In this document: in pieces, positions 43,238-60,115 of the stretch
How positions within the stretch are numbered: the stretch's first letter is position 1
Layout: each line of letters begins with the position of its first letter
DNA from: Candidatus Latescibacterota bacterium
GTDB lineage: Bacteria > Latescibacterota > UBA2968
DNA length: 64,000 nt
NCBI GenBank assembly: GCA_965204375.1
Contig: OZ241986.1
Coordinates: 4,256,001-4,320,000 of the forward strand
Direction: 5' to 3'
Position numbers and translations under genes: made by a program
The notes under the pieces: model-generated
Told to the model about the DNA's origin: nothing
What the model saw: only the letters and a program-made list of their open reading frames with translations
The model's database searches: none

Positions 43238-43269
43238 GCACCATAACCCCTAACAAACGGACCTCCATC

Positions 43270-44143: not shown

Positions 44144-45115
44144 ATGCCAGACAAAAAACAAATCGTCCGTCAACTGGACATCCTCCGCACACTCGACGCC
44201 TGGAGGTTTGGCGCAACACTCCAAGAACTCGCCGACGAGTCAGGCGTCTCAACGCGCACCATACAACGGGATATCAAGGATCTAAAAGAAGCGGGCTTCT
44301 TGATCGATGACGAGGTGCGAGACCGAAGAACATACTTTAAACTCGAAAACAACCTGCCGCCACTGAACTTTCCCATCGACGAAATTATCGCGCTAACCTT
44401 CATCGAAGAAATCGGCAGTCCGCTTGAGGGCACGCCATACAAAGAAGCATTTCAGAAAACCCTGAACAGAATCAGAACAGTGCTTCCAGAAGAAATGCGC
44501 GTATTTTTAGAAAAGGCGGGCGCGGCTTATTATCCCCATCATCGCGGGCAAAAAAAGCTGATATATCCCGAAGTATTCAAAACTGCTCATCGCGCAATCA
44601 AAGAACGCAAAGTGTGCAACGTCACTTATCACGCCATCACAACCGGACAAACCAAAACCTACCCCATTACCCCCTTCAGATTCTTGTATTATCACAACGG
44701 ATATTATCTTATCTGTCGCAATCCAAATTACGACGACTTACTCACACTCGCGGCAGAACGCATTCAGGACCTCGAAATCACATCCCAAACCTTTGACCCA
44801 CCCGATGATCTGGATATCGAAAACCGCATCCAACAGGCTTATGGTATCACACTCGAAGATCCGATGGACGTCAAAATCCGCTTCTCCGCCTGGCAAGCTC
44901 GCTACATCAAACAACGGACCTGGCACCCCTCACAAGAAATTGAAGAACTGGACAATGGCGAAATCATTCTCTCCTTTCAAGCTGGCGGTTTTTACGACAT
45001 AAAATCATGGATCCTGAGCCATGGTGCAGATGCAGAAGTCCTCGAACCAGCCGACCTGCGCGAAGAAATAATCAAAGAACTGAAAAAAAATCTGAATTTT
45101 TATAAAAAAACTTGA
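44144..45115 (+). CDS. WYL-domain transcriptional regulator (wHTH-WYL-WCX)
   Basis: ELA...GVS.RTI.RDI..L, P......G.YL, ERI, WHP.Q, WILS.G...EVLEP..LR. Confidence 0.93.
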   Translation: MPDKKQIVRQLDILRTLDAWRFGATLQELADESGVSTRTIQRDIKDLKEAGFLIDDEVRDRRTYFKLENNLPPLNFPIDEIIALTFIEEIGSPLEGTPYKEAFQKTLNRIRTVLPEEMRVFLEKAGAAYYPHHRGQKKLIYPEVFKTAHRAIKERKVCNVTYHAITTGQTKTYPITPFRFLYYHNGYYLICRNPNYDDLLTLAAERIQDLEITSQTFDPPDDLDIENRIQQAYGITLEDPMDVKIRFSAWQARYIKQRTWHPSQEIEELDNGEIILSFQAGGFYDIKSWILSHGADAEVLEPADLREEIIKELKKNLNFYKKT

Positions 45116-45189
45116 CCACCTGTGACATACCCTGTCATACCTCTTATTTATCTTAGAGACGCATTCCTTACAATGCGTCTCTTTTTTTT
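45112..45189 (+). promoter_or_regulatory. WYL-type operator/promoter copy 1 with overlapping terminator hairpin
   Basis: TGACA-TACCC-TGTCA (45123-45137); TGTCAT-N10-TATCTT; GAGACGCATT-N6-AATGCGTCTC-T8. Confidence 0.8.
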
Positions 45190-45216
45190 GTAAAAAAATC
45201 ATGAAAAACTAAAACC

Positions 45217-45232
45217 TGGCATAGTCTTTGCT
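45217..45232 (+). promoter_or_regulatory. sigma54-like promoter upstream of the triple AAA gene
   Basis: TGGCAT-AGTCT-TTGCT. Confidence 0.6.
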
Positions 45233-45294
45233 CTGATATACACCCAAAAGCAAATCAGATTCCGATACACTACATAAAGGAGATCAAATACGCC

Positions 45295-48141
45295 ATGAGA
45301 AGAGAACACAGACACCGCAGACGTTCAAGGAAATTTCGATCCGTGAATGAATACAGCCTGTACAGAAATCGGATCTACCTGCTAAACACACTCCGCGCTG
45401 CCCAGCAGAACCGCACCGTGCAAAAAGAACTGGTGGAGTGGTTCAAGCGCAATGAGGATGAACTGGAAATCACGGTCCCCTTCCTCATGCAAAAGTACTA
45501 CAAAGCAATACCGGGACGGAGGTCCTATCGATACGAGACCGAATCTTCCTCATCACCAGAGGATCCGGCTCAACGAAAAGCTGCTGAAACCCGATTCATC
45601 AACTCTTCAGTGAAAACCCTGGAGCGGAAAACCCGCGAAGCTCCGCCGCCAGACGCCGCCCAGACAGCGACCCACCTCGTCATCCAGCGATTCTCCCTAA
45701 AACCAATGGCTGGCGCACTGCTCCAACTCGCGTATTACTATCATATCTACCACTCTACAGCCCACAGCCTGTGGGACCAACTCCAGGACGTGGCCCAGGG
45801 GCATATTGAAACGACCGCGATCTTGCTGGACTGCTCTCCCGAGGAGGTGGAGGACGCATTCCGCGAACTCGCCGATGTGGGCATCGCCGACAGGGAAAAC
45901 CTGAGCGATAGAAGAACCGATCCCGGCGACTACACCCATCCCTATTTTGACCGGGTATGGCATCCGCCAGTGCGGAATATGGACGAATTGATGGCGCGTC
46001 TGGTCAGCCAGCCATGCGAGGCCAAGCTGGACCTGAAAGACTTCGCGCACCTCAATAACCGGGACAATGCCGTGCATATTCTCAGTGCAGCGATACAGGA
46101 GCGGCGCGAAGAAAAACCTGCAACAGGCGTAAACATCCTGTTATACGGTCGTGCTGGCACAGGAAAAACCGAATTTGCCAAAACCCTATCCTGCGCCGCT
46201 GGCGCTTGCCTCTATTCCATCGGCGAACCGGGCCGGAATGAAAAGGAAAAGTCCGATACCGAACGCGATTGCCGCGCCCGACGTCGCAACCAGATACGCA
46301 TGGCCCAGGCTCTCCTGCGATCCGTACCCGACGCCGCGATCTTGTGCGACGAAGCCGAGGATGTCCTGGACTCCTCTCACGGCACCCGCCTCATCAACCA
46401 CCGCCTGCTGGAAAACACCCCCGTACCGATCATCTACACGGCCAATCGCCTGGACCACCTGGACGAAAGCATGCTGCGGCGCTTCACGTACATCCTCAAA
46501 TTCACCGCCCACAGCCCCACCCGCCAGACCGCGATCCTACAACGGATGCTCGAGGAAAGCGGTATCGAAGGCATCGATACAACCACATGTGCGCGACGCC
46601 TCGTGGATCAACTCGAATGTCCCCCCGCCATCCTGGCAAAAGCCATCGAAACAACCCGTCTCATAAACGGCAAGGAGAACAACATCTACCACTTCTGCGA
46701 ACAATCAGAACGCACCATCGCCACCCATTGCACCCGCCTGCGCCTGGGACCTCCGGTCAAACCACAACTTCCGTGGGAATCTTATGCACACCTCGGACAA
46801 GACGCCGAAGACATCCGGCATACCCTCGCCGCGGTACTGGGTACAAATAGCAAGGGCGTCAACATCCTCCTGTACGGACCCCCCGGCACCGGCAAAACCG
46901 AATTCGCCCGCACCCTCTGTGGCGAAGTCGGCGCACAGCTATACGCCATAGGAGAAAACGAAATCGGCTCAGACGCACGCCCGAGCGCAGACCGCACAAA
47001 AACACTGGACTACGCCCTTGAAGCCCTATCCGACGAACCAAATACTGTGATCCTCTTTGACGAAATGGAGGACTTTCACCAGCCGAAAAAACTCTATCTG
47101 AACCGCATAGTCGAAGAAAACCCCGTACCCATAATCTGGGCGTGCAACGCCATATCCTATTACCGCATGTTTGAACCCTTCTTCATCGACCGCATGCTAC
47201 ACGCCATCGAGTTCCGCCACATGCCTGCCCAGGCGCGAGAGCATGTGTACTCCAGCATCCTGCGCGAAGTGCGTATTCCAGACATCGAGACCCGGCAACT
47301 CTCCCAAGAACTGGCACACAACAACAAAATAACCCCTCGCCAGGTCGCTCTTGCTGCCAAACAGGCCACTCTCATCAGCGGAAACAGTCAGACCATCAGG
47401 CGCAACATAGCCCAAAAAGAAAAACTGCGCCATGGCACCCGTCCACCCGACATGCGCCCGATCGAACACTACGACCCGGCCCTCGTCCGCGCCGACATCA
47501 ATCTGGAAGTGTTAGCCGAGCAAATGGTCGCCCTCGGCACGCGCCGATTCTCGCTCTGCCTGTGCGGACCTCCGGGAACGGGCAAAACAGCTTTTGTGCG
47601 CTACATCGCCGAACAAATGGGCATAGATATCCTTCCCAAGCGCGCGTCCGACCTCCTGAACAAATACGTCGGAGAAAGCGAGCAGAACATCGCATCGGCC
47701 TTTGCCGAAGCCCTCCAGACCAGCGCATTTCTCGTATTCGACGAAGTGGATTCGCTCCTTATGGACCGGCAATCTGCCCAACGATCATGGGAAGTGAGCA
47801 TGGTCAACGAACTGCTCAGCCAGATGGAGCGGCACCCCCTCCCTTATGCCTGCACCACGAACCAGTGGGACATCATCGACCCGGCAGCCGCACGCCGCTT
47901 CGTATTTCGCGCCGAATTTTACTACCTGGACCAACCGCGCATCAACCGCGCCTTCGCACTGTTCTTCAACAGCAAAGCACCGTCCTCCGTACTCGCACTG
48001 ACCAAACTCACCCCCGCCGACTTTGCCAACGTGCGAGAACGTGCAGAGATACTGGGCTTCCTGAACGACCCCGAGCGCATCGCGTATGCCCTCGCCGAAG
48101 AATGCCGCATAAAACCCGGCGGCGTCTCCGTCGGCTTCTGA
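45295..48141 (+). CDS. AAA+ ATPase with three AAA modules
   Basis: Walker A GRAGTGKT, GPPGTGKT, GPPGTGKT; Walker B CDEAE, FDEME, FDEVD; C-terminal VGF; SD AAGGAG. Confidence 0.9.
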   Translation: MRREHRHRRRSRKFRSVNEYSLYRNRIYLLNTLRAAQQNRTVQKELVEWFKRNEDELEITVPFLMQKYYKAIPGRRSYRYETESSSSPEDPAQRKAAETRFINSSVKTLERKTREAPPPDAAQTATHLVIQRFSLKPMAGALLQLAYYYHIYHSTAHSLWDQLQDVAQGHIETTAILLDCSPEEVEDAFRELADVGIADRENLSDRRTDPGDYTHPYFDRVWHPPVRNMDELMARLVSQPCEAKLDLKDFAHLNNRDNAVHILSAAIQERREEKPATGVNILLYGRAGTGKTEFAKTLSCAAGACLYSIGEPGRNEKEKSDTERDCRARRRNQIRMAQALLRSVPDAAILCDEAEDVLDSSHGTRLINHRLLENTPVPIIYTANRLDHLDESMLRRFTYILKFTAHSPTRQTAILQRMLEESGIEGIDTTTCARRLVDQLECPPAILAKAIETTRLINGKENNIYHFCEQSERTIATHCTRLRLGPPVKPQLPWESYAHLGQDAEDIRHTLAAVLGTNSKGVNILLYGPPGTGKTEFARTLCGEVGAQLYAIGENEIGSDARPSADRTKTLDYALEALSDEPNTVILFDEMEDFHQPKKLYLNRIVEENPVPIIWACNAISYYRMFEPFFIDRMLHAIEFRHMPAQAREHVYSSILREVRIPDIETRQLSQELAHNNKITPRQVALAAKQATLISGNSQTIRRNIAQKEKLRHGTRPPDMRPIEHYDPALVRADINLEVLAEQMVALGTRRFSLCLCGPPGTGKTAFVRYIAEQMGIDILPKRASDLLNKYVGESEQNIASAFAEALQTSAFLVFDEVDSLLMDRQSAQRSWEVSMVNELLSQMERHPLPYACTTNQWDIIDPAAARRFVFRAEFYYLDQPRINRAFALFFNSKAPSSVLALTKLTPADFANVRERAEILGFLNDPERIAYALAEECRIKPGGVSVGF

Positions 48142-48218
48142 CAGCATTTATTGCGAGACAAAATATGAGATAAAACAAAGGTATTGCCTGCAATTGAAAT
48201 AATCGCTAACTTACGGTT

Positions 48219-48461
48219 GTCAACCATTGAGCAGAGTCCCGCATGTCGGGTAGCCTGCTGAATACAACAGCCCATCAACGGCAACGGGTAGCTCCCTGAG
48301 CCAGGGCAAATAAGCAGGACTGTTCCCGCATCTCTCTGCGTGATGGTTGACACTACCCGGCACCCTTCCCGGGCCCGAGGTAAGGTCAACTATCAACTGT
48401 CAACCATCCAACCTCTGACACGCAAAGGAGAGATGCAATGTTCAAGAATACCTTCGCCTGA
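48219..48461 (+). ncRNA. Candidate structured switch-like RNA/leader with sigma70 promoter
   Basis: TTGCCT-N17-TAACTT at 48184-48212; long irregular hairpin 48219-48351; alternative pairing sequesters SD of a 7-codon ORF. Confidence 0.5.
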
Positions 48462-48659
48462 CCGACTTCAGGCAGCCTTCCTTTCTTTTCCTTTTTTAAC
48501 CTGTCTCAAAATCCCTGGAACGTCCCCCGTACGTCTCCGCGCAAATATGACGTACAGGACGCGGATGGAAACGTGTGTGTATGGTTCTTTGCTATCTAAT
48601 AAATATTAGACGTAAAAGGCCCTCAATGCACGACTTTCTAACTATTGGAGGATTGTAGG

Positions 48660-49304
48660 ATGAACAATCTTGTAAAATCTATGGGAATTCTGGTAGTTGT
48701 ATTTTCGCTTTCTGGCTGTAAACTGACAGCAGAAACAGAAGTGAGTCTTAAAGATATCTTAGAGTCTGAAACGAAAAATATTGGTGGTGATCTTTATGTT
48801 GAGGTTCCCAGTTGTAACAGCTATGAAGATTCTCGCAAACCATCGGACTCTGTCATTAAAGCTCAACAAACCATTCCAAGTGTATTTAAGGATGCAGAAT
48901 ATATCGAATGTTTTTCAAAGAAGTTCGATTCATTAGCACATTTCAGGATTCCAGTTATCCTTGACAAGGACCTGGATGGGAAATGGGCATCGGAGTCGCA
49001 TATAAATATTATTTCCAATAATGAAGAACTTCTCATGGTTGGCATTCCACCATCAATAAAAGCAAATATGGAAAACGCAAAACGCAAGAGCTTCCGATCT
49101 TTTGATCTTCAAGTTAATATCAAAATCAATAATGATACCGGAAAGGCATTTCCATTCACGGTGATGGCGGCTTATGTAGAAGGAAAGCCATTTGTTTTTC
49201 GTAATTTGTCCGCCAAAGCCAATAACTCATTTGTCGTAACCTTGTCTGATGTATCAGTTAGCAGAGCCTTAGAAACTGGCATTGCAAAGGTACTTAAGCG
49301 TTGA
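48660..49304 (+). CDS. Hypothetical lipoprotein
   Basis: Lipobox LSGC, SD GGAGG. Confidence 0.75.
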   Translation: MNNLVKSMGILVVVFSLSGCKLTAETEVSLKDILESETKNIGGDLYVEVPSCNSYEDSRKPSDSVIKAQQTIPSVFKDAEYIECFSKKFDSLAHFRIPVILDKDLDGKWASESHINIISNNEELLMVGIPPSIKANMENAKRKSFRSFDLQVNIKINNDTGKAFPFTVMAAYVEGKPFVFRNLSAKANNSFVVTLSDVSVSRALETGIAKVLKR

Positions 49305-49329
49305 AATCGCCTGATAGAAAGGACTGGTA

Positions 49330-49692
49330 ATGATTCATTTACGATTGGTTGTTTTGGCTTTTGTTTTAATCGCTTGCGAAAAAGGTGTTGCACCACATGA
49401 ACCGTGGATTGTTGAAGGAAGTGGAGATAAAATTATTAATGTTCCCAGCGGTGTTATTTTGGTTGATATTTCTGCCACTTCTTTTGTTCAAGGAACTGTT
49501 CAAGTTGAGGTGAAATGTCTATTGGAGTCCGGTATATGGTGGCCCGAAACAACTTTTGTACTTGGGACCGCACAAGGCTTATCTCCTAAAGGGTCAAGCC
49601 GAGAGAATATTTCCGATTGCTTACAATTATCTTTCGAGACAACACCGCAAGATCATGACGATATACGCTGGACTGTTGAAAAAGTGCAATAA
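49330..49692 (+). CDS. Hypothetical lipoprotein
   Basis: Lipobox LIAC. Confidence 0.65.
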   Translation: MIHLRLVVLAFVLIACEKGVAPHEPWIVEGSGDKIINVPSGVILVDISATSFVQGTVQVEVKCLLESGIWWPETTFVLGTAQGLSPKGSSRENISDCLQLSFETTPQDHDDIRWTVEKVQ

Positions 49693-49745
49693 AACAGCCA
49701 ACGATTATCAAATGGCAAAATCCTATTATCAAAATGGAGAGTTAC

Positions 49746-50087
49746 ATGCAAAAAGCTGGAGGAATCATCGCTCTCATTGCAGGGATTCTCGCCGTATTCG
49801 CGGCGGGAGTTACCTTGATCTCTGGCGGACTGGTCAGCGCGTTCGACGCGGAGAAAGGGGACATCGTAGTTTTTCTTGGATGGGGCGGCGTGCTGTTTTC
49901 GTTCACCACCATCATCCTGGGTGCTGTCGCCATATGGGCGAAGGGGCGAGTTCCAGGAATCCTGTTGATCGTATCTGCGGTTTGGGGAGCCATACTGGGA
50001 GGAACCCTGGTCGCCATCTTCATGGGACTCGCGCTAATCGGAGGCATCCTGACCATCCTCGGCACAGGGAAATCCGCAACCGAATAA
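49746..50087 (+). CDS. Small 4-TM membrane protein
   Basis: Gly-rich hydrophobic helices, SD GGAG. Confidence 0.75.
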   Translation: MQKAGGIIALIAGILAVFAAGVTLISGGLVSAFDAEKGDIVVFLGWGGVLFSFTTIILGAVAIWAKGRVPGILLIVSAVWGAILGGTLVAIFMGLALIGGILTILGTGKSATE

Positions 50088-50154
50088 CCGAGTATTACTC
50101 GTTGGACCTGATCTTCTGATTGAATTAAAAACTATCACCATTGGTTATTAAAAA

Positions 50155-50415
50155 GAGGACGAAGAGATCGCACGTATTATAGAGAACAATCCAGACGCAT
50201 CATGTGAAGAAATTGCCACAGCGCTCATCCATGCCGTGGAAAAAACTAGACATCCTTGCCAGGACAATACGACGGTGTTGCTCTACAAGCCAGAAGCCGA
50301 TTTGGGGGAGGGAATGCTTCCCGAGAAGCCCCGAGAAACAGGACCAGAAACAGGCTTATCAAGACTCTGGTCTGGATTTAAGAAAATGCTCACAAAATCT
50401 CCAGGTCAGGCTTGA
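50155..50415 (+). pseudogene. C-terminal remnant of a PP2C-type phosphatase
   Basis: Start-less frame EDEEIARIIE...IATALIHAV......QDNTTVLL. Confidence 0.55.
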
Positions 50416-50530
50416 TCTTCTGAGGGTAGAAATTATATTGTAATTGTAAAGAAAACGTTTTTATCTTGAACTCCTGGCTTGGCAATCCCGATGCTCTCAA
50501 ACTTTATCTCCTATCGAAGAAAGGCATCTC

Positions 50531-51640
50531 ATGACAACTCCTAACTTTTACTGCTTCGCGACGAATGAACGCGCACAGGACGCCACCATCGCCTACATAT
50601 TGGCGTGGGCCGACCCAAAATATCGCGAATCGCATCCACGACTTCATGCTCTCGGCACCGAACTGTTGCGTTCACTTCTTCGGACTCAAAAGGTGGACCT
50701 TCCGCTGATTAAGACTCTTTATATTGGAATCCAAGTTGTAATCAAACCTCATCGTGACCGAATTGACATTCTCGTCCAAATCAATATAGACCAAAATACC
50801 GACAGGATCATCTTGATCATCGAAGACAAGGTACGCACCACAGAGCACTCGAATCAGATCAAACGCTACAAGGAGATTGTAAAAGAGAAGTATAGTGGTC
50901 GTTATGACCATTTGGTTGCAGTGTATCTCAAGACGGGAAACGAATCAAGGGAATATCTTCCGCCAAAAAAGAAATGCGGTAGCTTTATGCGTCGTGATCT
51001 CCTTGATGTTCTGGATGGATTTCAAGATACGCAGAATACCATCGTAGATGACTTTCGCACGCATCTCCAGAGATGGGAGGACAACATGAATAGGTGGATA
51101 TCCGAGCATTATCGCAAGTGGCAAAGGGAACAATGGGAAGGCTTCTATACGGCACTGGAATCTATGTGGAGAGAGAATGGGGACTGGTGCGGTTGGGAGT
51201 ATTACTCAAATCGCTCTGGAGGATTTCTCGCGTGCTGGTTGTGCGACGGGCAGAAAGGTGAATTCAACCGGATCGGAACTTGTAAACGGTACGCGGAACT
51301 CTTTATACAGATTCACGACGCGATGCGTTTGACAGTCCGGCTTGGAGCGGGTAAAGCCATGGACAGAGTTGACAACCCCCTCATGTGGCAAGTTTTCAAT
51401 GCCTTGAAAAAGATTAAGGGGAGGACTTCCAGCGATATCGGGATCAAAAAGGCGGGCATATTCAGGGGAGGTAAAGGTGGTGCTATTGCAGACGTAACAT
51501 TCGGTGATCAGGATCCGTGGTTTGCCGTTGACTCTAACGGTATTGTGGACATGGATGCCACTATCGAGCGCCTTCGTCGCTTACTGGAACTGCTACGGCA
51601 AGTTGTGAAGTATCTCAACGAACAGGAAACAGTCAGTTAG
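50531..51640 (+). CDS. PD-(D/E)XK nuclease-family protein
   Basis: RIDILV...LIIEDKV....SNQI.RY, VYLKTG. Confidence 0.82.
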   Translation: MTTPNFYCFATNERAQDATIAYILAWADPKYRESHPRLHALGTELLRSLLRTQKVDLPLIKTLYIGIQVVIKPHRDRIDILVQINIDQNTDRIILIIEDKVRTTEHSNQIKRYKEIVKEKYSGRYDHLVAVYLKTGNESREYLPPKKKCGSFMRRDLLDVLDGFQDTQNTIVDDFRTHLQRWEDNMNRWISEHYRKWQREQWEGFYTALESMWRENGDWCGWEYYSNRSGGFLACWLCDGQKGEFNRIGTCKRYAELFIQIHDAMRLTVRLGAGKAMDRVDNPLMWQVFNALKKIKGRTSSDIGIKKAGIFRGGKGGAIADVTFGDQDPWFAVDSNGIVDMDATIERLRRLLELLRQVVKYLNEQETVS

Positions 51641-51651
51641 GGCGTGAACTT

Positions 51652-52215
51652 TCGGAAGCATTTAAAACTGCTGTTGTCAAAGCGCAAAAGTAGGGCATTT
51701 TAGAAGAAGAAATTTTTCAATTTTTGGAAGACGTGATTGACAACCGAGCAGCAGATCAAGCGTTAAAAGAAATGGAACGCACAGGGAAGAAGGTCAAATT
51801 ATCCAATAAGATTTTGGAAAAACTCGGCAAACTATGTCAAGCTGGCGGGTACGAAACCGTCGCGCAAGGTTTGGAACATGCTATTGACCATCATCTATTA
51901 GAACTGCGCCGTCAAAGAACAGAAAAATAAGAAAAAAATTACAAGAAAAAAATTTGACTGAGGATGAAATTCTCAAAGACTTTGAAATATTTCGAGAGAA
52001 TTTGAGGCAAGGGAATGCCGCGATCTTATAGACATTGAAGACATTCAAACTATTACGACACAAGATTTACTAACCGTCATAGCCACAAATGAATAGTCAA
52101 AATGTGTTTCCGCTCAGATTTGATAAACGCCCTGCCTTAAAAAACAAAGGCGCAGTTCCAAGATAGAGGAACTGCGCCCATTTTATATACCCGGCATCAC
52201 CTTTACATACGGCGG
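51652..52215 (+). pseudogene. Mosaic of TA remnants (copies of parts of 59852-60115 and 57302-57640)
   Basis: Near-identical DNA blocks with internal stop (AAGTAG) and deletions. Confidence 0.8.
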
Positions 52216-52495
52216 GGCTAACCTCTAAGACGAATTTCACTCGCACACTCATCGCTCAAACCCTGCTGCTCCGGTTGACTTCTGTAACGTCCAAAAGAGG
52301 ATGCGAGGATGCCGAAATCCTCGGAGAAGGCCACGTATACCCCAGTACGTGGCCTTCTATACGTGTGAGTCAGAGCAAAAATAATATTATTTTTGTTTTT
52401 GGGGTTGACAAGTTAGTTTTTTTCCCGAAATTTTGCCAATTAGGTCAGGAGAAATAAGATTTGAACGCCTCCTCGTCTAAGAGAAAGGAAGAAAT

Positions 52496-53089
52496 ATGCT
52501 ACTAAGTATCATTGTATTTGGTGTTATTGCTACAAGCGTAACCTCGCTTGTTTTGGCGATTTTAATCATCTACCAACAATGGCCGTATTTTTCGATGCAT
52601 AAGACGGCAGGATGGAATGATAATGAAGTCGCTACGAATTACTTCACCGAATTATTGGATACAGCCGAACATAAAATAAGTATCTCGGATCACGGCAACG
52701 TGATGGACGGGTCTATATATCAGAATGATGCTGTGATTGAGAAAGTGGAAATGAAGCTAAAGGACTATCCGGACTTTGTGATAGAATGTGGCTTTACTTC
52801 CGAAGATCGTAATAAGTTTAGGGAGAAATTTGAAAACCACCCACGAGTAAATATCAAACAAAGAGAGGAACCAGATTTAGACTTTCCTCATTACAAAATT
52901 ACTGACAACGGCAAAAAAGCCCATTTGTCGTGTCACGATTTGGGATCTAATAATCGAAACGTCCAGTATTATGATTTTTCAGAAGTAAAAATCCGCCGAG
53001 GACAGACTGACGTAATAGATAAACACATCGGTGAATATCTTAAAGATATAAAACTTATATTTTCGCCTCTTGGGAGCCAGAATGCCTGA
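52496..53089 (+). CDS. Membrane-anchored protein with possible PLD-like domain
   Basis: N-terminal TM; F..LL..A...I.I; HYKITD resembles a shortened HxK-D motif. Confidence 0.6.
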   Translation: MLLSIIVFGVIATSVTSLVLAILIIYQQWPYFSMHKTAGWNDNEVATNYFTELLDTAEHKISISDHGNVMDGSIYQNDAVIEKVEMKLKDYPDFVIECGFTSEDRNKFREKFENHPRVNIKQREEPDLDFPHYKITDNGKKAHLSCHDLGSNNRNVQYYDFSEVKIRRGQTDVIDKHIGEYLKDIKLIFSPLGSQNA

Positions 53090-53399
53090 TGTGACAGCAT
53101 GGGATGCAATTCCAATTCATCTAATAATAAGTTTTTTTGGATTCTTCACGCTAACATCATTATTTTCAGCATGGACAGATTCTTTTTATGGCAAAAAAGT
53201 TTTCAAAATAGTAGTAGGGATAAACATCGCTATATCTGTTTTTTTTTGGATTGCCATTATGATCCATAGCATTGGGGAGATACAGCAAATGGATTCGTTC
53301 TACCACATACACAATATCTCTTTTGTTTTATTTTCCTATGCTTGGAGCTTGGCTTTATGTCCAGTAGTTTTGTTTTGGCTTGAACTTCGCAGAATATAG
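53082..53399 (+). CDS. Small 3-TM membrane protein
   Basis: MPDVTAW start overlapping the upstream stop; three hydrophobic helices. Confidence 0.6.
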   Translation: MPDVTAWDAIPIHLIISFFGFFTLTSLFSAWTDSFYGKKVFKIVVGINIAISVFFWIAIMIHSIGEIQQMDSFYHIHNISFVLFSYAWSLALCPVVLFWLELRRI

Positions 53400-53485
53400 T
53401 AACCGTCATAGCTACATAGGTCGCCTGAAGGTGCGCTGTTTCGGCCTTAATCCTGCCAAAAAATAGGGTGCATGCATAAAAAAAT

Positions 53486-53562
53486 TTGATCACCTACGAC
53501 ATACTCTGTCATATCTCTTGTTTATCTTTGAGACGCATTCCTTGCAATGCGTCTCTTTTTTT
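53486..53562 (+). promoter_or_regulatory. WYL-type operator/promoter copy 2
   Basis: CGACA-TACTC-TGTCA; TGTCAT-N10-TATCTT; same hairpin plus T7. Confidence 0.8.
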
Positions 53563-53591
53563 AAAATCCATTTAAACAAAGCAGGTGAACC

Positions 53592-55046
53592 ATGACAAGA
53601 CACTATCTCTCCAAATCGAAAATCATGGCGGGGTGTCAGTGTGAGAAGCGTTTGTGGCTGGAGGTGTATCGGTCCGACCTCATTGAATACGGCTCCGATG
53701 TCGAGCAGCGATTTGCGGTGGGCGAGGATGTCAACGATGTAGCTCGCGCTCAATATCCGGACGGGGTACTTGTCTCCTACGATCCTGGACCGGAGGCTGC
53801 GGTAGAGGAAACCCGGCGTCTGCTTGCAGAACAGCCCGATACACCGATCTTCGAGGCCACCTTCAAAGCGCAGGGTGTTCTGGTCCGTGTGGATATCCTC
53901 AACCCGTGCCGCGAAGGCTATGAACTCATCGAAGTAAAATCCAGCACCTCAGTCAAAGATCATTATTGCGAAGATAGTGCCGTGCAAACCTGGGTCCTGG
54001 AATGCGCGGGCATCCCGGTCAAAGCGATCTATCTTTGTCACATCAACAATCAATTCGTCTATCCCGGCAACGGCGATTACCAGGGACTGTTCCACTATGA
54101 AAACATCACGGAAGAGGTACGGGAACTGAGCAGAGAAGTTCCGCAATGGGTGCATCGCTACAGAGAAATGCTCAGTGGCAACGAACCCGAAATCGAAATC
54201 GGACCCCAATGCACGGATCCCTATCCCTGTCCCTTTATCGAATATTGTCGCGGCGAAGAGACCGAGTATCCGCTACGACACCTGCCTCGTATTTCCCGTC
54301 AGCGCATAGACGCCCTGACCGCTGAAGGCATTGAAGACATCCGCGACATACCTGAAGGCCGATTGAGCAGTGCCACACAAGAATGGGTACGACGTATCAC
54401 GATTGCGGGCGAGTCAGAACTAAAACCGGAGGCTGCTGAGGTCGGCGAATATGGTTATCCGCGCTACTACCTCGACTTTGAGACCATCCAATTCGCGGTA
54501 CCCATCTGGGAAGGCACACGCCCTTACCAGGCATTGCCATTTCAATGGTCCTGCCACATTGAACTTGCCAGCGGAGAGTTTCAGCACGAAGCATATCTTG
54601 ACACCAGCGGCAACTCGCCAATGCGTGCCTGTGCGGAATCCCTTATAGAAGTCATAGGCAAGAAAGGCCCAATTTTCGCTTATGGAAGCTATGAAAAAAC
54701 TGTCTTAAATGCCCTGATAGCCCGCTACCCCGATCTTGCCGAGGAACTGCACAAATTGACGGACCGACTCGTGGACCTTCTCTCCATCGTGCGGAAGACG
54801 TATTATCACCCCGACATGCTCGGCTCGTGGTCAATCAAGAACGTATTGCCCACAGTAGCACCACATCTCAACTATGGATCGCTCGGTGATGTGCAGGACG
54901 GAAGCGCGGCGGGAACGGCCTATTTACAAATCATCAACCCGGAAACTGATCCCTTCGAACGCCAACGGCTGGTAAGCGAGTTATTAGCTTATTGCGAGCA
55001 CGACACCCTGGCACTGGTGGAACTCGTGAAATATCTTTCGAAATGA
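53592..55046 (+). CDS. DUF2779-type protein: Cas4-like PD-(D/E)XK/Fe-S domain plus DEDD/RNase H-like domain (copy 1)
   Basis: LSKS..G.QC.KRLWL, RVDIL..ELIEVKSST, C..PY.CPF..YC, YYLDFET, PFQWS.H, SIK.VLP, YC..DT. Confidence 0.88.
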   Translation: MTRHYLSKSKIMAGCQCEKRLWLEVYRSDLIEYGSDVEQRFAVGEDVNDVARAQYPDGVLVSYDPGPEAAVEETRRLLAEQPDTPIFEATFKAQGVLVRVDILNPCREGYELIEVKSSTSVKDHYCEDSAVQTWVLECAGIPVKAIYLCHINNQFVYPGNGDYQGLFHYENITEEVRELSREVPQWVHRYREMLSGNEPEIEIGPQCTDPYPCPFIEYCRGEETEYPLRHLPRISRQRIDALTAEGIEDIRDIPEGRLSSATQEWVRRITIAGESELKPEAAEVGEYGYPRYYLDFETIQFAVPIWEGTRPYQALPFQWSCHIELASGEFQHEAYLDTSGNSPMRACAESLIEVIGKKGPIFAYGSYEKTVLNALIARYPDLAEELHKLTDRLVDLLSIVRKTYYHPDMLGSWSIKNVLPTVAPHLNYGSLGDVQDGSAAGTAYLQIINPETDPFERQRLVSELLAYCEHDTLALVELVKYLSK

Positions 55047-55218
55047 TCCGGGTGAATTCTCTTGAAGAAATTGTTTGCTTTGGCTACATTTATTTTACTG
55101 TAATTTTAGCTTGTTCATGAGAGTTTTTTGCTTATATTTATTGAGTTTATGCATTATTTTGCTTCAAAATCATCTTGTTTGAGATAGTTTTGCTTTTCAT
55201 TGTAACCGGAGGAGAGTT

Positions 55219-55407
55219 ATGTCCCAAAGTCAGCCCCGGAATGAACCAGCTACACAACAGGATCTGGAAGCCCTGTTTCTCCGTATTCCCAAACCCGAAG
55301 ATTTTGAGTTGTCCCCTCAAGAAAAACGGGCACTTGAGGATCTTTTAGCATGGGAAAAAAGGTCTGCAAAAATGCATTGGATTCTGGGACAACCTACGGA
55401 AAAATGA
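55219..55407 (+). CDS. 62-aa hypothetical protein
   Basis: SD GGAGG, directly upstream of the papain-like gene. Confidence 0.6.
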   Translation: MSQSQPRNEPATQQDLEALFLRIPKPEDFELSPQEKRALEDLLAWEKRSAKMHWILGQPTEK

Positions 55408-55468
55408 GTCATCACTAAATCGCAGCCAAAAATCAAAAAGTCTCGTAAAAAATTACGAGGCTTTTTTG

Positions 55469-57163
55469 ATGTATAAAAATAAGGACCCGCCTGTGAAAGA
55501 CACCTTTGCAAAAGAACAAAAACTATTAAAATCCTGCCAAGCTCCTTTTTCGTTTTATCAACTTGTAGAAGACCTCTGGCACCCGAAAAGCAATAGCGGA
55601 TCAGATCCCATGAGTCGTCTATGTACGCTAATGAGAAAGATGAAGGTCAAATCGTTCATTAAGGAAGAATTAGAATTAAACGAGGAATTATTAGAAGAAC
55701 AGGCTATGGCCACCAAACGATGTAAACAAAAGGTAAGCCTCACTGCGACACGCCTGACATTCTTTCGATCATTGCCTTCTCCTCCTAAATGGAACGATCC
55801 AGATAAGTTACCGGACGATCATCTCTTAGGATACGCTGTGATAGCAACACTTGAACTACCTGACGATGAATACAGAACTTACCTATTGGAATCCGTAGTT
55901 CGACCTCCCTCCATCTGGATACGTGATGCAGAAGATCGCATTTCCATTGAACCCATCACGAATTACTACGTACATAACAGAAAAACTTTTGAGACAAATA
56001 TCGGTACAAAAGAAAATTCGAGAACCTTTACTCTGACCGGCAGTTTTTTCGCCCAACAGAACGATATCACCCACGTCTGTGCCCATGCCGCCTTGAGAAC
56101 GGCAATCAATAGCTCATCTACGCTCAATACTGAAAAACTCACAAACCAAAAGATCAATGAGATTCTGGGAATTGATTTCAGCAGCCCCGAAAAATGCGTA
56201 GGTCATATAGATGGTGATCCGCCAGGAACCAAAGAAGGGTTGGAGATTCAAGAGTTAGAGGAAGTCATTCGCCAATTGGGTGGGAGAACAATATCAGCAG
56301 ATTTTGCAGAAAATACTTCGGTAGAATACGACCAATTTATCTATCCATTTGTCGAGTCTGCCTGTCCTGTAATACTGGGAATAGAAGGTTGGAATTTTAA
56401 TAGGTCCAGACCTTCAAGAATTAGCCATGCTGTTTCCGTTTTGGGACATACACTCAATTCAGATAGATGGGAACCGGAAGCCCGCTCTGGATATGGCAGA
56501 TTTCCAGCGGAATCTTATACACCAATCACTGGCTGGGTTGGACACTATATCATCAATGATGATAACTTTGGTATGTATGTGACTTTGCCGTCTGATATGC
56601 TGAGAAACTACCTTGTTCCGTCAAAAAATCCCAACTTACACGCTACAAGAGCAGTTGCCATAGTCCCTTCTGATGTGCAGCTCTCTGGCCTGTCCGCAGA
56701 ACGCATGGCTGTATGGATTGCTCAATCTCTAATTGAAGGTCTAAAAGAATCATCGCCTGTTATTTGGCTTGAAAGATTAGCCCAACAATCTAACAGCATA
56801 GTGAGTCGAACGCTACTTCAAACCAAAGCATCCTATAGACAATACATTGATGGTCTCGTTCAAAGGGACCAAGTAACATTAACTCCAGAAATTAGACAGA
56901 GATTCGAGAATATGCCAGAACATATCTGGGTATCTGAAATTACCTTACCTCATCTTTACACTGGCAATAAACACAAGCTCGGCGATGTAATCATTGACGC
57001 AAATGCTACTGATGAGGAACATAGCGCGGTTGAAAGTTTTGAATTAGCCTGGTTTCCGGGCTTCATATATTTTGGATCAGATCACCAGATTTTTCCCTGG
57101 GATGTGCATACTCATGTGCCACTTATAAGAGAAGAGGAGACAATTCCTCTACTCGAATGGTAA
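55469..57163 (+). CDS. Hypothetical protein with papain/C39-like catalytic motifs
   Basis: QQN....CAHAAL, HAVSVLGH, IINDDNFG.Y. Confidence 0.65.
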   Translation: MYKNKDPPVKDTFAKEQKLLKSCQAPFSFYQLVEDLWHPKSNSGSDPMSRLCTLMRKMKVKSFIKEELELNEELLEEQAMATKRCKQKVSLTATRLTFFRSLPSPPKWNDPDKLPDDHLLGYAVIATLELPDDEYRTYLLESVVRPPSIWIRDAEDRISIEPITNYYVHNRKTFETNIGTKENSRTFTLTGSFFAQQNDITHVCAHAALRTAINSSSTLNTEKLTNQKINEILGIDFSSPEKCVGHIDGDPPGTKEGLEIQELEEVIRQLGGRTISADFAENTSVEYDQFIYPFVESACPVILGIEGWNFNRSRPSRISHAVSVLGHTLNSDRWEPEARSGYGRFPAESYTPITGWVGHYIINDDNFGMYVTLPSDMLRNYLVPSKNPNLHATRAVAIVPSDVQLSGLSAERMAVWIAQSLIEGLKESSPVIWLERLAQQSNSIVSRTLLQTKASYRQYIDGLVQRDQVTLTPEIRQRFENMPEHIWVSEITLPHLYTGNKHKLGDVIIDANATDEEHSAVESFELAWFPGFIYFGSDHQIFPWDVHTHVPLIREEETIPLLEW

Positions 57164-57301
57164 TATTATCTTTTTGATCTCATTATGATACCCATGCCAA
57201 ACAAAGGAATCTCCAATTTATGAGGATATGCAGGATACTCTTGAGCGCAAAAAATCTGGTCAGTTGAAATTTTATACGCATGAGACAATGAGGAATTATT
57301 A

Positions 57302-57550
57302 ATGGAAACGATCCGATTGTCCAATGAGATTTTGGAAAAACTCGGCAAACTATGTCAAGCTGGCGGGTATGAAACCATCGCGCAAGGTTTGGAACATGCT
57401 ATTGACCATCATCTATTAGAACTACGCCGTCAAAGAGCAGAAAAAAGAGGCAAAAAAATAAGAAAAAAATTACAAGAAAAAAATTTGACTGAGGATGAAA
57501 TTCTCAAAGACTTTGAAATATTTCGAGAAAATTTGACGCACCCGATTTGA
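57302..57550 (+). CDS. Small RHH-like putative antitoxin
   Basis: 82 aa, SD GAGG; L.E..LTEDEIL C-terminus; duplicated as remnant at 51.8 kb. Confidence 0.55.
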   Translation: METIRLSNEILEKLGKLCQAGGYETIAQGLEHAIDHHLLELRRQRAEKRGKKIRKKLQEKNLTEDEILKDFEIFRENLTHPI

Positions 57551-57665
57551 TAAACGCCCTGCCTTAAAAAACAAAGACGCAGTTCCAAGGTAGAGGAACT
57601 GCGCCCATTTTATGCCCGGCATCACCTTTACATACGGCGGTGCCAAAGTCGATACCCTCGTGTGT

Positions 57666-57848
57666 TTACGAGGCTCTTTTCGGATAGACGACACGTAGCT
57701 GAGTCATATCGCAGTCATCAAGCATAAGAGTATCGGGATCGTCTTTTATTGCTTTGTCGATCTCCTCATCTGTCACGCGATCCAAATAATCAAAGTCTGT
57801 CCGCGACTTCTCGCTTTTAGACTTTCGACCAGAAAAGCTCTCGTTCAT
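57666..57848 (-). pseudogene. Truncated BrnA-like antitoxin
   Basis: S.TD...L...TDEEI..AI.DDPD N-terminus; C-terminal RHH missing. Confidence 0.6.
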
Positions 57849-57874
57849 TTTTTTGCCCTCCTCGCAATAGTCAC

Positions 57875-58042
57875 CTATCTTTTGCCAGGTTGTTTCGCCA
57901 GATGCGCCTGAGTCATATCATGCGCCCGGCGCAAGTCCTTTAAGGTCATATAGGTAGCTTGAAGATGCGCTGTTTCGGTCTTAATCCGCGCCTGTCTCTC
58001 AGGAGGCAGAGACGCTATTTTTTTTTGTAGGGAAGTTCCCAT
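57875..58042 (-). pseudogene. Truncated XRE/HigA-like antitoxin
   Basis: L...IA.LP.ER.ARI......L.DLRRA..MTQ..LA, cut within the HTH. Confidence 0.65.
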
Positions 58043-58202
58043 CAGATGTTTCCTTTCCATTATCTCAATATAGTTTCAGAGCGATATAGCTTCAAGACAA
58101 TAATAAAAAGGACATCATTGTCGTATGAGAACGCGAGATAAACTCGATCCAGATAAATTGTAGCGAAATTTGTGCCAAAAATATGGTGAATACGTAAAAA
58201 AT

Positions 58203-58278
58203 CTGACCACCTGCGACATACCCTGTCACCCCTTCTGTTTATCTTTTAGGCGCATTCATTGCAATGCATATCTTTTTT
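58203..58278 (+). promoter_or_regulatory. WYL-type operator/promoter copy 3
   Basis: CGACA-TACCC-TGTCA; TGTCAC-N10-TATCTT; hairpin degenerate. Confidence 0.78.
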
Positions 58279-58309
58279 CTAAAGCCCACTTAAACAAAGC
58301 AGGTGAACC

Positions 58310-59773
58310 ATGACAACACATTACCTCTCCAAATCGAAAATCATGGCGGGTCGCCAGTGTGAGAAACGTCTGTGGCTGGAGGTGTATCGGTCCGACCTCA
58401 TCGAATATGGCTCCGATGTTGAGCAGCACTTTGCTGTGGGCGATGACGTCAACGATATGGCTCGCGCCCAATATCCGGACGGCGTACTCGTCTCCTACGA
58501 TCATGGACCGGAGGCTGCGGTAGAGGAAACCCGGCGTCTGATGGCAGAACATCCTGGTAAGCCAATCTTTGAGGCCACCTTCAAAGCGCATGATGTTCTG
58601 GTCCGTGTAGATATCCTCAGGCCATGCCGCGAAGGCTATGAACTCATCGAAGTAAAATCCAGCACCTCGGTCAAAGATCATCATCGCGCAGATAGTGCAG
58701 TGCAGACCTGGGTGCTAAAATCCGCAGGCATCTCGGTCAAAGCGATCTATCTTTGTCACATCGATAGGCAATTCGTATATCCCGGCAACGGCGATTACCG
58801 GGGTCTGTTCCACTATGAAAACATCACGGAACAAGTGCGAGAACTGAGCCGTGCAGTCCCACAATGGGTGCATCGCTACAGAGAAATGCTCAACCGCGAC
58901 GAACCCGAAATCGAAACCGGATCCCAATGCACGGGTCCCTATCCCTGCCCCTTTATCGAATATTGTCGCGGCGAAAAAACCGGGTATCCACTACGACACC
59001 TGCCTCGGATTTCTCATCAACTCATAGACGCCCTGACTGCTGAAGGCATTGAAGACATCCGCGACATACCTGAAGGCCGCTTGAGCAGTGTCACACAAGA
59101 ATGGGTACGACGTGTCACGATTGCGGGCGAGCCGGAACTAAAGCCGGAGGCTGCGGAGGTCGGCGAATATGGTTATCCGCGCTACTATCTCGACTTTGAG
59201 ACCATCCAATTCGCGGTTCCTATCTGGAAAGGCACACGCCCTTACCAGGCATTGCCATTTCAATGGTCCTGCCACATTGAACTTGCCAGCGGTGAGCTTC
59301 GGCACGAAGAATATCTTGACACCATTGGCAAACCACCGATGCTTACCTGTGCGGAATCGCTGATCGAAATCATAGGAGAGGAAGGGCCGATCTTCACTTA
59401 TGGGCACTTTGAAAAGGGGGGCTTGAATGCCCTTGCAGCCCGCTACCCCCATCTCGCCGACGATCTGCACAAATTGACGGAACGACTCGTAGATCTCCTT
59501 CCCATCATGCGGAGAACTTACTATCACCCCGATATGCTCGGCTCGTGGTCGCTCAAAGACGTGTTGCCCACAATAGCACCGCATCTCGACTATGGATCGC
59601 TCGGTGACGTACAGGACGGAAACGCGGCGGGAACTGCCTATTTACAGATCATCAACCCTGAGACTATTGCCGCCGAGCGCGAACGTTTGACGCACGAGTT
59701 GCTGGCTTATTGCAAGCGCGACACCCTGGCACTGGTAGAACTCGTGACGTATCTTTCGCAAGGATCCGGATGA
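58310..59773 (+). CDS. DUF2779-type nuclease (copy 2)
   Basis: Colinear paralog of 53592-55046 with all motifs retained. Confidence 0.88.
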   Translation: MTTHYLSKSKIMAGRQCEKRLWLEVYRSDLIEYGSDVEQHFAVGDDVNDMARAQYPDGVLVSYDHGPEAAVEETRRLMAEHPGKPIFEATFKAHDVLVRVDILRPCREGYELIEVKSSTSVKDHHRADSAVQTWVLKSAGISVKAIYLCHIDRQFVYPGNGDYRGLFHYENITEQVRELSRAVPQWVHRYREMLNRDEPEIETGSQCTGPYPCPFIEYCRGEKTGYPLRHLPRISHQLIDALTAEGIEDIRDIPEGRLSSVTQEWVRRVTIAGEPELKPEAAEVGEYGYPRYYLDFETIQFAVPIWKGTRPYQALPFQWSCHIELASGELRHEEYLDTIGKPPMLTCAESLIEIIGEEGPIFTYGHFEKGGLNALAARYPHLADDLHKLTERLVDLLPIMRRTYYHPDMLGSWSLKDVLPTIAPHLDYGSLGDVQDGNAAGTAYLQIINPETIAAERERLTHELLAYCKRDTLALVELVTYLSQGSG

Positions 59774-59851: not shown

Positions 59852-60115
59852 ATGGCCGTTTCGACCCCCATTGATGTGCCAGAATCTTGTCCAACAATAG
59901 CCAAGAAACCCGAAAATATACAAAAAGAACTTTGGGAAGCATTTGAGAGTGCTGTTGTAAAAGCGCAAAAGCAGGGCATTCCAGAAGAAGAAATTTTTCA
60001 ATTTTTGGAAGACGTGATTGACAATCGAGCAGCAGATCAAGCATTAAAAGAAATGGAACGCACAGGGGAAAAACCCATTCCATGGGCAAAAGTCAAAAAG
60101 GAAGCGGGACTATAG
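59852..60115 (+). CDS. Antitoxin of the adjacent RelE
   Basis: LED..D......AL.E....GE.PIPW..VK.E.GL; SD AAGGAG. Confidence 0.8.
   Translation: MAVSTPIDVPESCPTIAKKPENIQKELWEAFESAVVKAQKQGIPEEEIFQFLEDVIDNRAADQALKEMERTGEKPIPWAKVKKEAGL

Follow-up and report, generated by a model that had tools for sequence, protein, structure and literature searches.

The metagenome-assembled genome of an uncultured, sponge-associated Candidatus Latescibacterota bacterium carries, within the 64,000-nucleotide (nt) stretch analysed here (contig OZ241986.1; hereafter the window), a gene for a WYL-domain regulator followed by three copies of a promoter-like element, which precede a gene for an ATPase with three AAA modules and both of two genes for DUF2779-type nucleases. 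With a probability of roughly 0.7, judged from sequence comparison, the WYL protein is a DriD-type activator of the three island promoters, its operator taking the place of the -35 hexamer. The comparison demonstrates that the elements are unique in the genome and that they co-occur and co-vary with the WYL gene; it also establishes the promoter geometry and shows the locus to be an island. From these we infer that the WYL protein binds the box and where transcription would start; activation itself, the ligand and the physiological role are ascribed by homology. Regulator and promoter would represent a further case of the DriD/SiwR kind, and the gene set that they are predicted to control appears uncharacterised.

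Results

A three-copy element with promoter-like geometry

A repeat search of the window returned a single 87-nt family with three members, copies 2 and 3 being 90% and 78% identical to copy 1 (Table 1). Each copy consists, in this order, of an A-tract, an inverted repeat YGACA-N5-TGTCA (the box), 11 variable nt and the hexamer TATCTT; copies 1 and 2 add a perfect, GC-rich hairpin of 10-11 bp and a T-run. As its left arm the box has TGACA in copy 1 and CGACA in the other two copies, and the gap from TGTCAY to TATCTT is exactly 10 nt in all three. Copy 1 begins within the last codons of the WYL gene, whose stop codon (45113-45115) it contains. The -10 hexamers lie 140, 63 and 64 nt upstream of the start codons at 45295, 53592 and 58310. 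The first-pass annotation of this DNA had described the same inverted repeat and the same 10-nt gap, and had placed the copies in front of the same three genes; our reading agrees on each point, the positions that it gave (45112, 53486 and 58203) falling 10 nt inside the copies as we delimit them.

The combined pattern GACA-N5-TGTCA-N11-TATCTT, searched with up to two mismatches, has three matches in the window, all perfect and all on the forward strand (45124, 53498 and 58215), against a chance expectation of 0.05; none of 100 shuffles reached three. Over the whole genome (6,340,849 bases) the search gave three forward, no reverse and no control matches, and blastn found no further copy of the element elsewhere in the 6.34 Mb. 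A position weight matrix of 55 columns scored the three sites at 77-86 bits, the next best site in the genome at -0.3 and the best control at -0.6. When the core alone was scanned with 0, 1, 2 and 3 mismatches, the genome yielded 2, 2, 102 and 1013 matches versus 0, 4, 88 and 1101 in the reversed-genome control, that is, no excess apart from the three sites. The predicted regulon in this genome is confined to the island.

The place where a -35 hexamer would be expected reads CATACC in the element copies; the neighbouring tRNA promoter, for comparison, is TTGACA-17-GATATT. An upstream TTGACC was considered as a -35 and rejected, being 32 nt from TATCTT and having a -10 candidate of its own that matches at two of six positions. 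Each of the three copies has the spacing GTC-N12-TATCTT, and so do 25 of 25 sites in the genus, where it is fixed by the search pattern. The operator letters are CGAC-N7-GTCA in copies 2 and 3 and TGAC-N7-GTCA in copy 1; G2, C4, G12 and C14 are kept and the outermost base differs. The DriD consensus, as published, is ATACGAC(X)7GTCGTAT, within an operator class CGxC-N7-GxCG in which Arg37 and Arg41 read G2, C4, G12 and C14 (PMC10853764). According to the available text of PMC13004042, DriD sites occupy the place of an absent -35 and keep a constant distance to the -10, DriD contacts the C-terminal domain of the alpha subunit and the beta subunits of RNA polymerase, and in both the didA promoter oligonucleotide and its 'optimised -35' variant the -10 hexamer stands 12 nt after GTC. 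The PafBC motif, tGTCgg(N10)tA(N3)T, has the same GTC-N12-TAnnnT spacing (PMC8635444). The first pass had named the latter motif, which is in print in this form, and had called the promoters PafBC/DriD-style; the operator class of the box (PMC10853764) and the relatedness of the regulator to DriD, described below, bear this out.

Covariation identifies the hairpin in the 3' third of the element as the WYL gene's own intrinsic terminator. When 17 WYL-to-AAA spacers from two genera are aligned, they reveal a stem of 10 pairs, three of which are changed on both sides, with G-U intermediates that fit the forward strand only, a loop of variable length and a T-run after the stem. The hairpin begins 1-2 nt after the -10. 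A start some 7 nt after the -10 would fall in the 5' arm of the hairpin, and the regulated transcript would therefore escape the terminator. In two congeners (G002 and G004; G-numbers denote genomes and L-numbers loci of the comparison) the copies upstream of DUF2779 have lost the hairpin and retain box, spacing and -10. The possibility that the element is a small RNA or an attenuator was rejected since the hairpin is absent from such functional-looking copies. The proposal of a promoter element of about 75 bp is thus upheld for the operator and the -10, and its last third is reassigned to the WYL terminator.

A DriD-like regulator

Searching the PDB with the WYL protein (phmmer) retrieved DriD as the closest chains (9pfq and 8tp8, E 7e-15, residues 7-315) and PafB of Mycobacterium smegmatis as a weaker relative (E 4e-4); none of the 13 PDB matches at E<=1 was a CapW/BrxR chain. 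The residues that correspond to Arg37, Thr38 and Arg41 of DriD are retained in 16 of 16 WYL relatives, the recognition helix being STRTIQR here and RRTI(Q/E)R in the relatives from a sister genus (g6) and a further family (f4). The genome holds one match to the family at E<=1e-20, hence no paralogue pair of the PafB/PafC type. No GNC-N7-GNC site was found in the 170 nt upstream of the WYL start codon. The same genome carries lexA, so that the LexA-independent response suggested by the first pass can stand as one parallel to LexA and not as its replacement.

The box follows the WYL gene across the phylum

The comparison drew on 168 species genomes of the phylum, and 41 related genomes served for the motif scan. 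With up to one mismatch, the motif has 25 sites in 14 of the 41 genomes and no control matches. It is present in 13 of the 14 other WYL-positive congeners, the exception (G011) having a truncated AAA gene, and in none of the six WYL-negative ones. Wherever the motif search caught an intact WYL gene within the genus (12 of 12), the WYL match ends 11 nt upstream of the box. An AAA search that was independent of the motif led to the same place: the box lies upstream in 11 of 11 same-genus loci. The AAA proteins of these 11 loci share 64-91% identity. Between the loci, little or nothing changes in the A-tract, box, -10 and stems, and the leader after the T-run decays; the box is more conserved than the flanking non-coding DNA, the opposite of what the first pass had named as a refutation. 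The scan of genome and relatives that the first pass had called for therefore yields three sites here and a motif that tracks the WYL gene from genome to genome.

More distant relatives keep the architecture in other letters. In the sister genus g6 (WYL proteins 59-65% identical), a GAC-N7-GTC box occupies the same place in six of six loci, with TAnnnT 12 nt on and then a hairpin; the half-sites are CGAC...GTCG in the five loci read in detail, two of which match the DriD consensus in full (ATACGAC-N7-GTCGTAT). Family f4, with WYL proteins about 47% identical, has its WYL stop codon within TGCGAC-N7-GTCGCA, a pattern with 57 sites in 27 of the 168 genomes versus one control match, often with two to six sites per island. 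WYL is present in 20 of the 24 box-positive f4 genomes; five WYL-positive genomes are without an exact box, and 47 have neither. The g6-type pattern ACGAC-N7-GTCGT-N10-TAnnnT was also tried as a regulon scan and discarded as having no scan value: apart from the sites next to WYL in G025 and G031 it gave six matches, at control level, four of which are one unrelated orthologous site.

Some boxes stand in front of other genes. Those before mraZ (G009) and before an AAA_5 ATPase (G017, G019) are at least 1 Mb from the WYL gene, which would point to regulation in trans. In G009 (L041:3977), and in this one species only, the full box and -10 precede an mraZ-rsmH-ftsL-PBP cluster of division and cell-wall genes, which recalls DriD driving didA. 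In G017 (L039:10080-12800) and G019 (L040:9632-12083), two or three boxes are clustered in 3 kb; every one of them precedes a small open reading frame (ORF) or an AAA_5 (MoxR/dynein-type) ATPase gene, and these clusters adjoin a gene for a 400-aa ankyrin-repeat protein. Within the WYL islands of G009 and G016, a box precedes a second dnaB (L038:8854 and L042:9699), and in G012 the second dnaB directly follows the AAA gene (L120:5458-6816); the second dnaB is 88-93% identical to the housekeeping copy, with 88-91% in G009 and G016. Islands of family f4 (L082 of G128, L083 of G146) combine the WYL gene with two to four boxes, a two-module AAA, an ADP-ribosylglycohydrolase and a PDDEXK_4 nuclease, and f4 islands also hold dnaB; in G128 such a module occurs twice in tandem, and six boxes fall within 15 kb.

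The genes behind the boxes

Pfam matches agree with the gene content first proposed, namely WYL, triple AAA and two DUF2779. Each of the three AAA modules of the ATPase has, as read from the translation, an intact Walker A and Walker B, and the third module is VCP/CDC48-like. It belongs to a small family that counts 182 proteins at E<=1e-20, all of them lacking a functional name; relatives with two modules, about 690 aa long, occur in Proteobacteria and in family f4.

The two DUF2779 proteins are 84% identical and belong to a large family, for which 6,479 of the candidates scored reach E<=1e-10. An alignment of 28 homologues shows C17, D101, E114, K116, C207, C213, C219, D295, E297, E368, Y467 and D471 to be invariant. 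The N-terminal half has the D...ExK motif and four cysteines of a Cas4-like nuclease, the matches to Cas4 models being weak; the C-terminal half, in which D295, E297, E368, Y467 and D471 would form a putative DEDD site, matches RNase_H_2 weakly (5e-4). DUF2779 is accordingly predicted to join a Cas4-like PD-(D/E)XK half to an RNase H-like DEDD half, which fits the published reading of DUF2779/TM0106 as a 3'-5' exonuclease half joined to one that resembles Cas4 (PMC13621843, PMC3985635). No PDB relative was found, either with the single sequence or with a 28-row profile.

All eight congeners with DUF2779 also have WYL; both lie in the WYL island in the seven cases on one contig, and on different contigs in G005. 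In G012 and G031, DUF2779 is the distal gene of a packed co-directional run that starts at the box promoter. In G000, G002 and G004, opposite-strand genes (a remnant in G000) lie directly upstream of a box-bearing DUF2779, with the promoter cassette directly before it. Similar opposite-strand interruptions in G015 and G020 come without a second box.

The first pass regarded the two DUF2779 genes as twin nucleases. There are two copies, and they are the product of a recent duplication inside one island. Contigs from three metatranscriptome runs, which contain 0.07-0.13 of the words and stem from related strains (90-99% identity), join 55031 to 59750, an island form with a single DUF2779; the pair therefore reflects a recent segmental duplication.

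A patchy island beside tRNA-Leu

The WYL gene starts 170 nt after tRNA-Leu(CAA), which is followed by a terminator-like hairpin (43985-44011). The distance from the floA gene (FloA) on the left to the gene for a FAD-binding protein on the right is 834-952 nt in four of five WYL-less congeners (in the fifth the two are on different contigs) versus 17,258 nt here. Because the flanking genes nearly adjoin in WYL-less congeners, we regard the locus as an accessory island at a tRNA site; by this comparison it is a 16-17-kb insertion beside tRNA-Leu, patchy within the genus. A prophage origin was rejected: no integrase, capsid or terminase family appeared among the ORFs scanned. DUF7424 had no match in a phage collection, in which the ATPase matched, with its last two modules, a single unannotated record of an uncultured phage.

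The WYL gene and its box head every island mapped, and the triple-AAA gene comes directly next except in G016, where it is absent, and in the decayed loci of G010 and G011. Cargo farther downstream comes in varying combinations of a second dnaB, an outer-membrane beta-barrel protein or DUF7424 lipoprotein, AAA_22 with DUF2357/PDDEXK_7, PDDEXK_4, DUF2779 and toxin-antitoxin genes. The genome studied here has one ordinary dnaB, outside the island.

Homologous loci on plasmids

A tblastn search of plasmids with the ATPase gave 18 records, of which 12 loci were examined. WYL is annotated within the flank shown in nine of these and DUF2779 is present in two, from Rhodoferax antarcticus (order AAA, DUF2779, WYL) and Sphingobium yanoikuyae (DUF2779 and a WYL gene divergent to AAA). 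The co-occurrence of WYL, DUF2779 and AAA, which the first pass had proposed as a check, is thus found in two phyla. Other neighbours on the plasmids are an ADP-ribosylglycohydrolase with an AddAB-like pair, Sir2, HEPN, a macro domain, PLD, SNF2, toxin-antitoxin genes and BREX-2. An exact CGAC-N7-GTCG palindrome lies in the WYL/AAA intergenic region of four of the nine loci. Since the total in the 12 loci (18) is within that of shuffles (mean 9, maximum 20), only where these four intergenic boxes lie is of significance. The Rhodobacterales loci, from Leisingera and Fuscovulum, are without an exact box, the latter having a version with one mismatch after the WYL stop codon; the AAA-WYL-ADP-ribosylglycohydrolase order of the f4 islands recurs on these two plasmids (L124 and L125).

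Table 1. Coordinates of the regulator, the element copies and the other island features in the window
Feature	Position	Strand	Basis and remarks
tRNA-Leu(CAA)	43887..43973	+	ARAGORN; left island border
Winged helix-turn-helix (wHTH)-WYL-WCX regulator, 323 aa, DriD-like	44144..45115	+	Pfam HTH_11 9-55, WYL 143-212, WCX 240-315
Element copy 1	45102-45188	+	Operator 45123-45137 (TGACA-N5-TGTCA); -10 TATCTT 45149-45154; hairpin 45155-45182; T-run
Triple-AAA ATPase, 948 aa	45295..48141	+	Pfam AAA, 3 stretches; Arg-rich N-terminus without family match
89-aa ORF	48340..48609	+	No family match (PADLOC, NCBIfam)
DUF7424 protein, lipoprotein-type signal (LSGC)	48645..49304	+	Pfam E 5e-44; phrog_3832 E 3e-29
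PD-(D/E)XK nuclease (PDDEXK_4)	50531..51640	+	Pfam E 3e-10; PADLOC candidate family PDC-S26 E 8e-14
Element copy 2	53476-53562	+	Operator 53497-53511; -10 53523-53528; hairpin 53530-53555
DUF2779 nuclease a	53592..55046	+	Pfam DUF2779 E 2e-41, RNase_H_2 5e-4; TIGR03491 2e-10
565-aa protein, no known family	55466..57163	+	Island passenger
Element copy 3	58193-58279	+	Operator 58214-58228; -10 58240-58245; hairpin decayed (terminator scan: none)
DUF2779 nuclease b	58310..59773	+	Pfam DUF2779 9e-39, Cas_Cas4 3e-3; PADLOC Cas4 2e-5
Antitoxin-like ORF and ParE-family toxin	59852..60369	+	Pfam ParE_toxin E 6e-11; right island end

Discussion

The properties of the WYL protein and of its boxes inspire a close analogy with DriD, the homodimeric activator of an SOS-independent damage response in Caulobacter crescentus. 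The two proteins share the wHTH-WYL-WCX order, DriD being the closest solved relative, and the operators are of one class, CGxC-N7-GxCG, with the box over a missing -35 and GTC 12 nt before the -10 as in didA. Here, as with DriD, the adjacent operon would be driven and the regulator's own promoter has no box; the available text of PMC13004042 describes DriD as driving the adjacent operon without self-regulation. DriD targets, too, include nucleases and replication genes. In contrast to DriD, the present protein belongs to a distant phylum, its similarity is low (E 7e-15), and four of the seven residues through which DriD contacts single-stranded DNA (ssDNA) are not retained. The operator here sits at the 3' end of the regulator gene, co-directional with it and sharing space with its terminator; the triple AAA, DUF2779 and PDDEXK_4 that make up the cargo bear no relation to the DriD regulon; and the module is island-borne and patchy, whereas that of DriD is core.

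Two mycobacterial systems offer further parallels. SiwR of M. smegmatis is likewise a local WYL activator acting on a co-directional next operon; the accessible part of the report places an imperfect palindrome about 60 bp after the regulator gene, between -35 and -10 of that operon, and describes the -26 region as essential (PMC10693628). Unlike the present operator, that of SiwR has a GGA at -26; the cargo consists of DinB/YfiT-like enzymes, and the system is actinobacterial. PafBC shares the GTC-N12-TAnnnT spacing and the missing -35, and its ligand is reported to be ssDNA in the available sections of PMC8635444 and PMC11804915. It differs in being a heterodimer or fusion that recognises a single non-palindromic half-site, needs the polymerase for DNA binding and governs about 150 genes, whereas here we find one 323-aa gene, a full palindrome and three targets.

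By analogy with these regulators, one could envision the following sequence of events. The WYL dimer would most likely be made constitutively and would dock on the boxes once it has bound a nucleic acid; this ligand is probably ssDNA that arises from damaged DNA or from foreign DNA in replication. There it would help the housekeeping RNA polymerase to start at promoters that have no -35, as do DriD, SiwR and PafBC. The hairpin and T-run after the -10 would stop read-through from the WYL gene, and the regulated transcripts, starting inside the 5' arm of the hairpin, would escape it. The AAA+ machine and the nucleases so induced would then act.

On what they would act is a separate matter. We lean, by a modest preference, towards invading DNA as the target. 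ParE- and Gp49-type modules, DUF2357/PDDEXK_7 and PDDEXK_4 in the islands, together with Sir2, HEPN and BREX-2 beside the plasmid homologues, suggest a flavour of defence. As the first pass had surmised, our searches gave no named system of this composition. Searched with PADLOC-DB v2 models, the island proteins gave only generic AAA and WYL, weak Cas4 and PDC-S26 matches, the system-level rules not being applied; NCBIfam and PHROGs gave no specific system match. Our literature searches found no description of the WYL-AAA-DUF2779 combination, although supplementary lists of gene families associated with WYL (e.g. PMC9122601) may hold it. The resemblance to IetAS, to TRIP13 of CBASS and to mad8 of MADS (PADLOC) consists of generic matches of the third AAA module (IetA, E 8e-30, residues 752-895). 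Unlike the case of IetAS proper, only one AAA module is matched, IetS-type partners are absent and the NCBIfam IteA score is 101 bits against a cut-off of 510. The DUF2779/TM0106 nucleases and solo Cas4 proteins, for their part, have in common with our pair the Cas4-like motif with four cysteines and an RNase H-fold, exonuclease-like half, as far as the available portions of PMC13621843 and PMC3985635 describe them; in contrast to these, DUF2779 is here tied to a WYL switch and an AAA ATPase, and no cas genes lie in the island.

We consider a role against invading DNA more likely than one in repair. Under the latter, the same regulator and promoters would serve a module for tolerating DNA damage or restarting replication, made up of helicase, nucleases and remodelling ATPase; the Latescibacterota would then have their own counterpart of the DriD or PafBC regulon. 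This strikes us as a rather doubtful though substantial alternative. The reported targets of DriD (recA, recJ, dnaG, bapE and the division inhibitor didA, in the parts available of PMC10853764 and PMC9186387) speak for it, as do the boxes before the dnaB paralogue (G009, G016) and mraZ (G009), the second dnaB after AAA in G012, and the dnaB and ADP-ribosylglycohydrolase of the f4 islands. Against it stand the patchiness of the island within the genus, its place at a tRNA site that is empty in congeners, and the toxin-antitoxin modules, DUF2357/PDDEXK_7 and PDDEXK_4 (a PADLOC candidate family) in the islands; the plasmid homologues lie beside Sir2, HEPN and BREX-2, and lexA and a normal dnaB are found elsewhere in the genome.

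The sign of the regulation is the next point at issue. CapW and BrxR have the same domain architecture as the present protein and, according to the available text of PMC11662680, bind palindromes of about 20 bp in defence promoters, from which ssDNA releases them. One could imagine a WYL repressor of this type that blocks the polymerase on the boxes in unstressed cells and leaves upon binding ssDNA, all the more as the box overlaps the core promoter and, as with CapW/BrxR, a palindromic operator and a regulator gene head a variable, defence-like island. We hold this to be improbable. CapW/BrxR chains are not found by sequence at E<=1, against 7e-15 for DriD; there is no recognisable -35 to mask; and the distance to the -10 is identical to that of activator-dependent promoters. 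Moreover, CapW/BrxR operators lie in the regulator's own, often bidirectional, promoter, whereas no such site precedes the WYL gene here.

Finally, the three elements could be inert leftovers of segmental duplication (WYL 3' end plus terminator), as the many duplicated segments of the island and the remnants of WYL C-terminal codons in copies 2 and 3, with the terminator in copy 2, might be taken to indicate, but this can be dismissed as highly implausible: the hairpin-less copies of G004 and G002 keep box, spacing and -10, other species have boxes in front of unrelated genes at a great distance from the island, WYL lineages 47-64% identical keep the box architecture at the same place in a different sequence, and proteobacterial loci also have the box.

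To return to the activator reading and the defence role attached to it, a number of observations weigh against one or the other. Of the seven ssDNA-contact residues of DriD, as given in the available text of PMC9186387, a pairwise alignment finds Tyr168 and Tyr192 identical and Ser172 conservatively replaced by Thr, and Arg178, Lys202, Arg204 and Trp206 not retained; because four of the seven are not retained, the ligand of the WYL protein is uncertain. A palindrome over a promoter also resembles a repressor site. The genomes compared are close kin rather than independent samples, so that our counts overstate independence. The sites entering the weight matrix were gathered with the pattern itself, which makes invariance at the pattern positions circular and leaves the A-tract, a CACC and the spacing as its only independent features. 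The box lies directly upstream of only four of 12 DUF2779 orthologues, the rest needing assumed co-transcription or other promoters. The matches to PADLOC and PHROGs are generic, whence the defence role rests on the neighbourhood; and neither defence nor repair accounts cleanly for an operon that includes a dnaB paralogue and a gene for a lipoprotein or outer-membrane protein. The metatranscriptome contigs cannot show starts, strand or level and served for island structure only.

It is tempting to speculate, quite tentatively, that WYL, a multi-module AAA+ protein and a swappable DNA- or NAD-degrading effector (DUF2779, PD-(D/E)XK, an AddAB-like pair with ADP-ribosylglycohydrolase, Sir2 or PLD) make up an undescribed mobile family of ssDNA-triggered immune systems, shared by Latescibacterota and Alpha-, Beta- and Gammaproteobacteria. 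Its operator and -10 would form a portable cassette of about 45 nt, copied before the second dnaB, mraZ and MoxR-like ATPases so as to draft them.

The promoter logic of DriD, PafBC and SiwR has so far been studied in Caulobacter and actinobacteria. That it appears unchanged in a candidate phylum from which nothing has been cultured, and on proteobacterial plasmids, suggests a way of building promoters that is both old and portable, and the copies of the cassette illustrate how a small regulon may grow. Two orphan families, DUF2779 with more than 6,000 homologues and the rare multi-module AAA ATPase, would gain a first regulatory context. The occurrence of the gene trio on plasmids of cultured Rhodoferax and Sphingobium strains makes the proposal accessible to experiments at the bench.

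Other features of the island

The DUF7424 gene appears to be a conserved partner downstream of the AAA gene; in G004, G038 and G025 an ORF of similar size (214-220 aa) follows AAA. The 89-aa ORF between the two has only fragmentary matches, at the junction of the second dnaB and the outer-membrane-protein gene in G012 and G020, and related strains skip 272 nt there; it is probably a relic at the place where relatives carry the dnaB paralogue. Relatives of the PDDEXK_4 nuclease sit in islands of G002, G012 and family f4. The 565-aa protein had no match in sequence searches of Pfam, PADLOC, NCBIfam, PHROGs and the PDB; it is 79-82% conserved in congeners at shifting island positions (G002, G016, G017) and is frameshifted in G016. 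The antitoxin ORF is kept at the right island end in G002, G004, G015 and G016.

Duplicated segments abound in the island (families D1, D3, D4, D6, D7, D12 and D14) and include 51646-52221, 57316-57646 and 59927-60072; a strong bidirectional hairpin lies within such segments at 52148-52179 and at 57575-57606. Copies 2 and 3 are each preceded by a 38-nt flank (53416-53453 and 57950-57987), itself a repeat, which overlaps a minus-strand ORF of 61 aa (57875-58060). In its place G002 has two minus-strand ORFs (L045:10846-11540), one of them Gp49-like, possibly a toxin-antitoxin pair. The same flank accompanies the mraZ box of G009, and the portable cassette seems to include toxin-antitoxin remnants.

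The right flank (60424-63399) is ordinary chromosome, with a FAD-binding oxidoreductase (60424) and a sulfatase, typical of this lineage, which is associated with sponges and corals. On the left, between FloA and the tRNA, an ORF of 204 aa (43228-43842) without a Pfam family is conserved beside FloA in congeners; it contains three tandem repeats of 54 nt (18 aa) at 43505-43666, with identities of 100, 81 and 65%.

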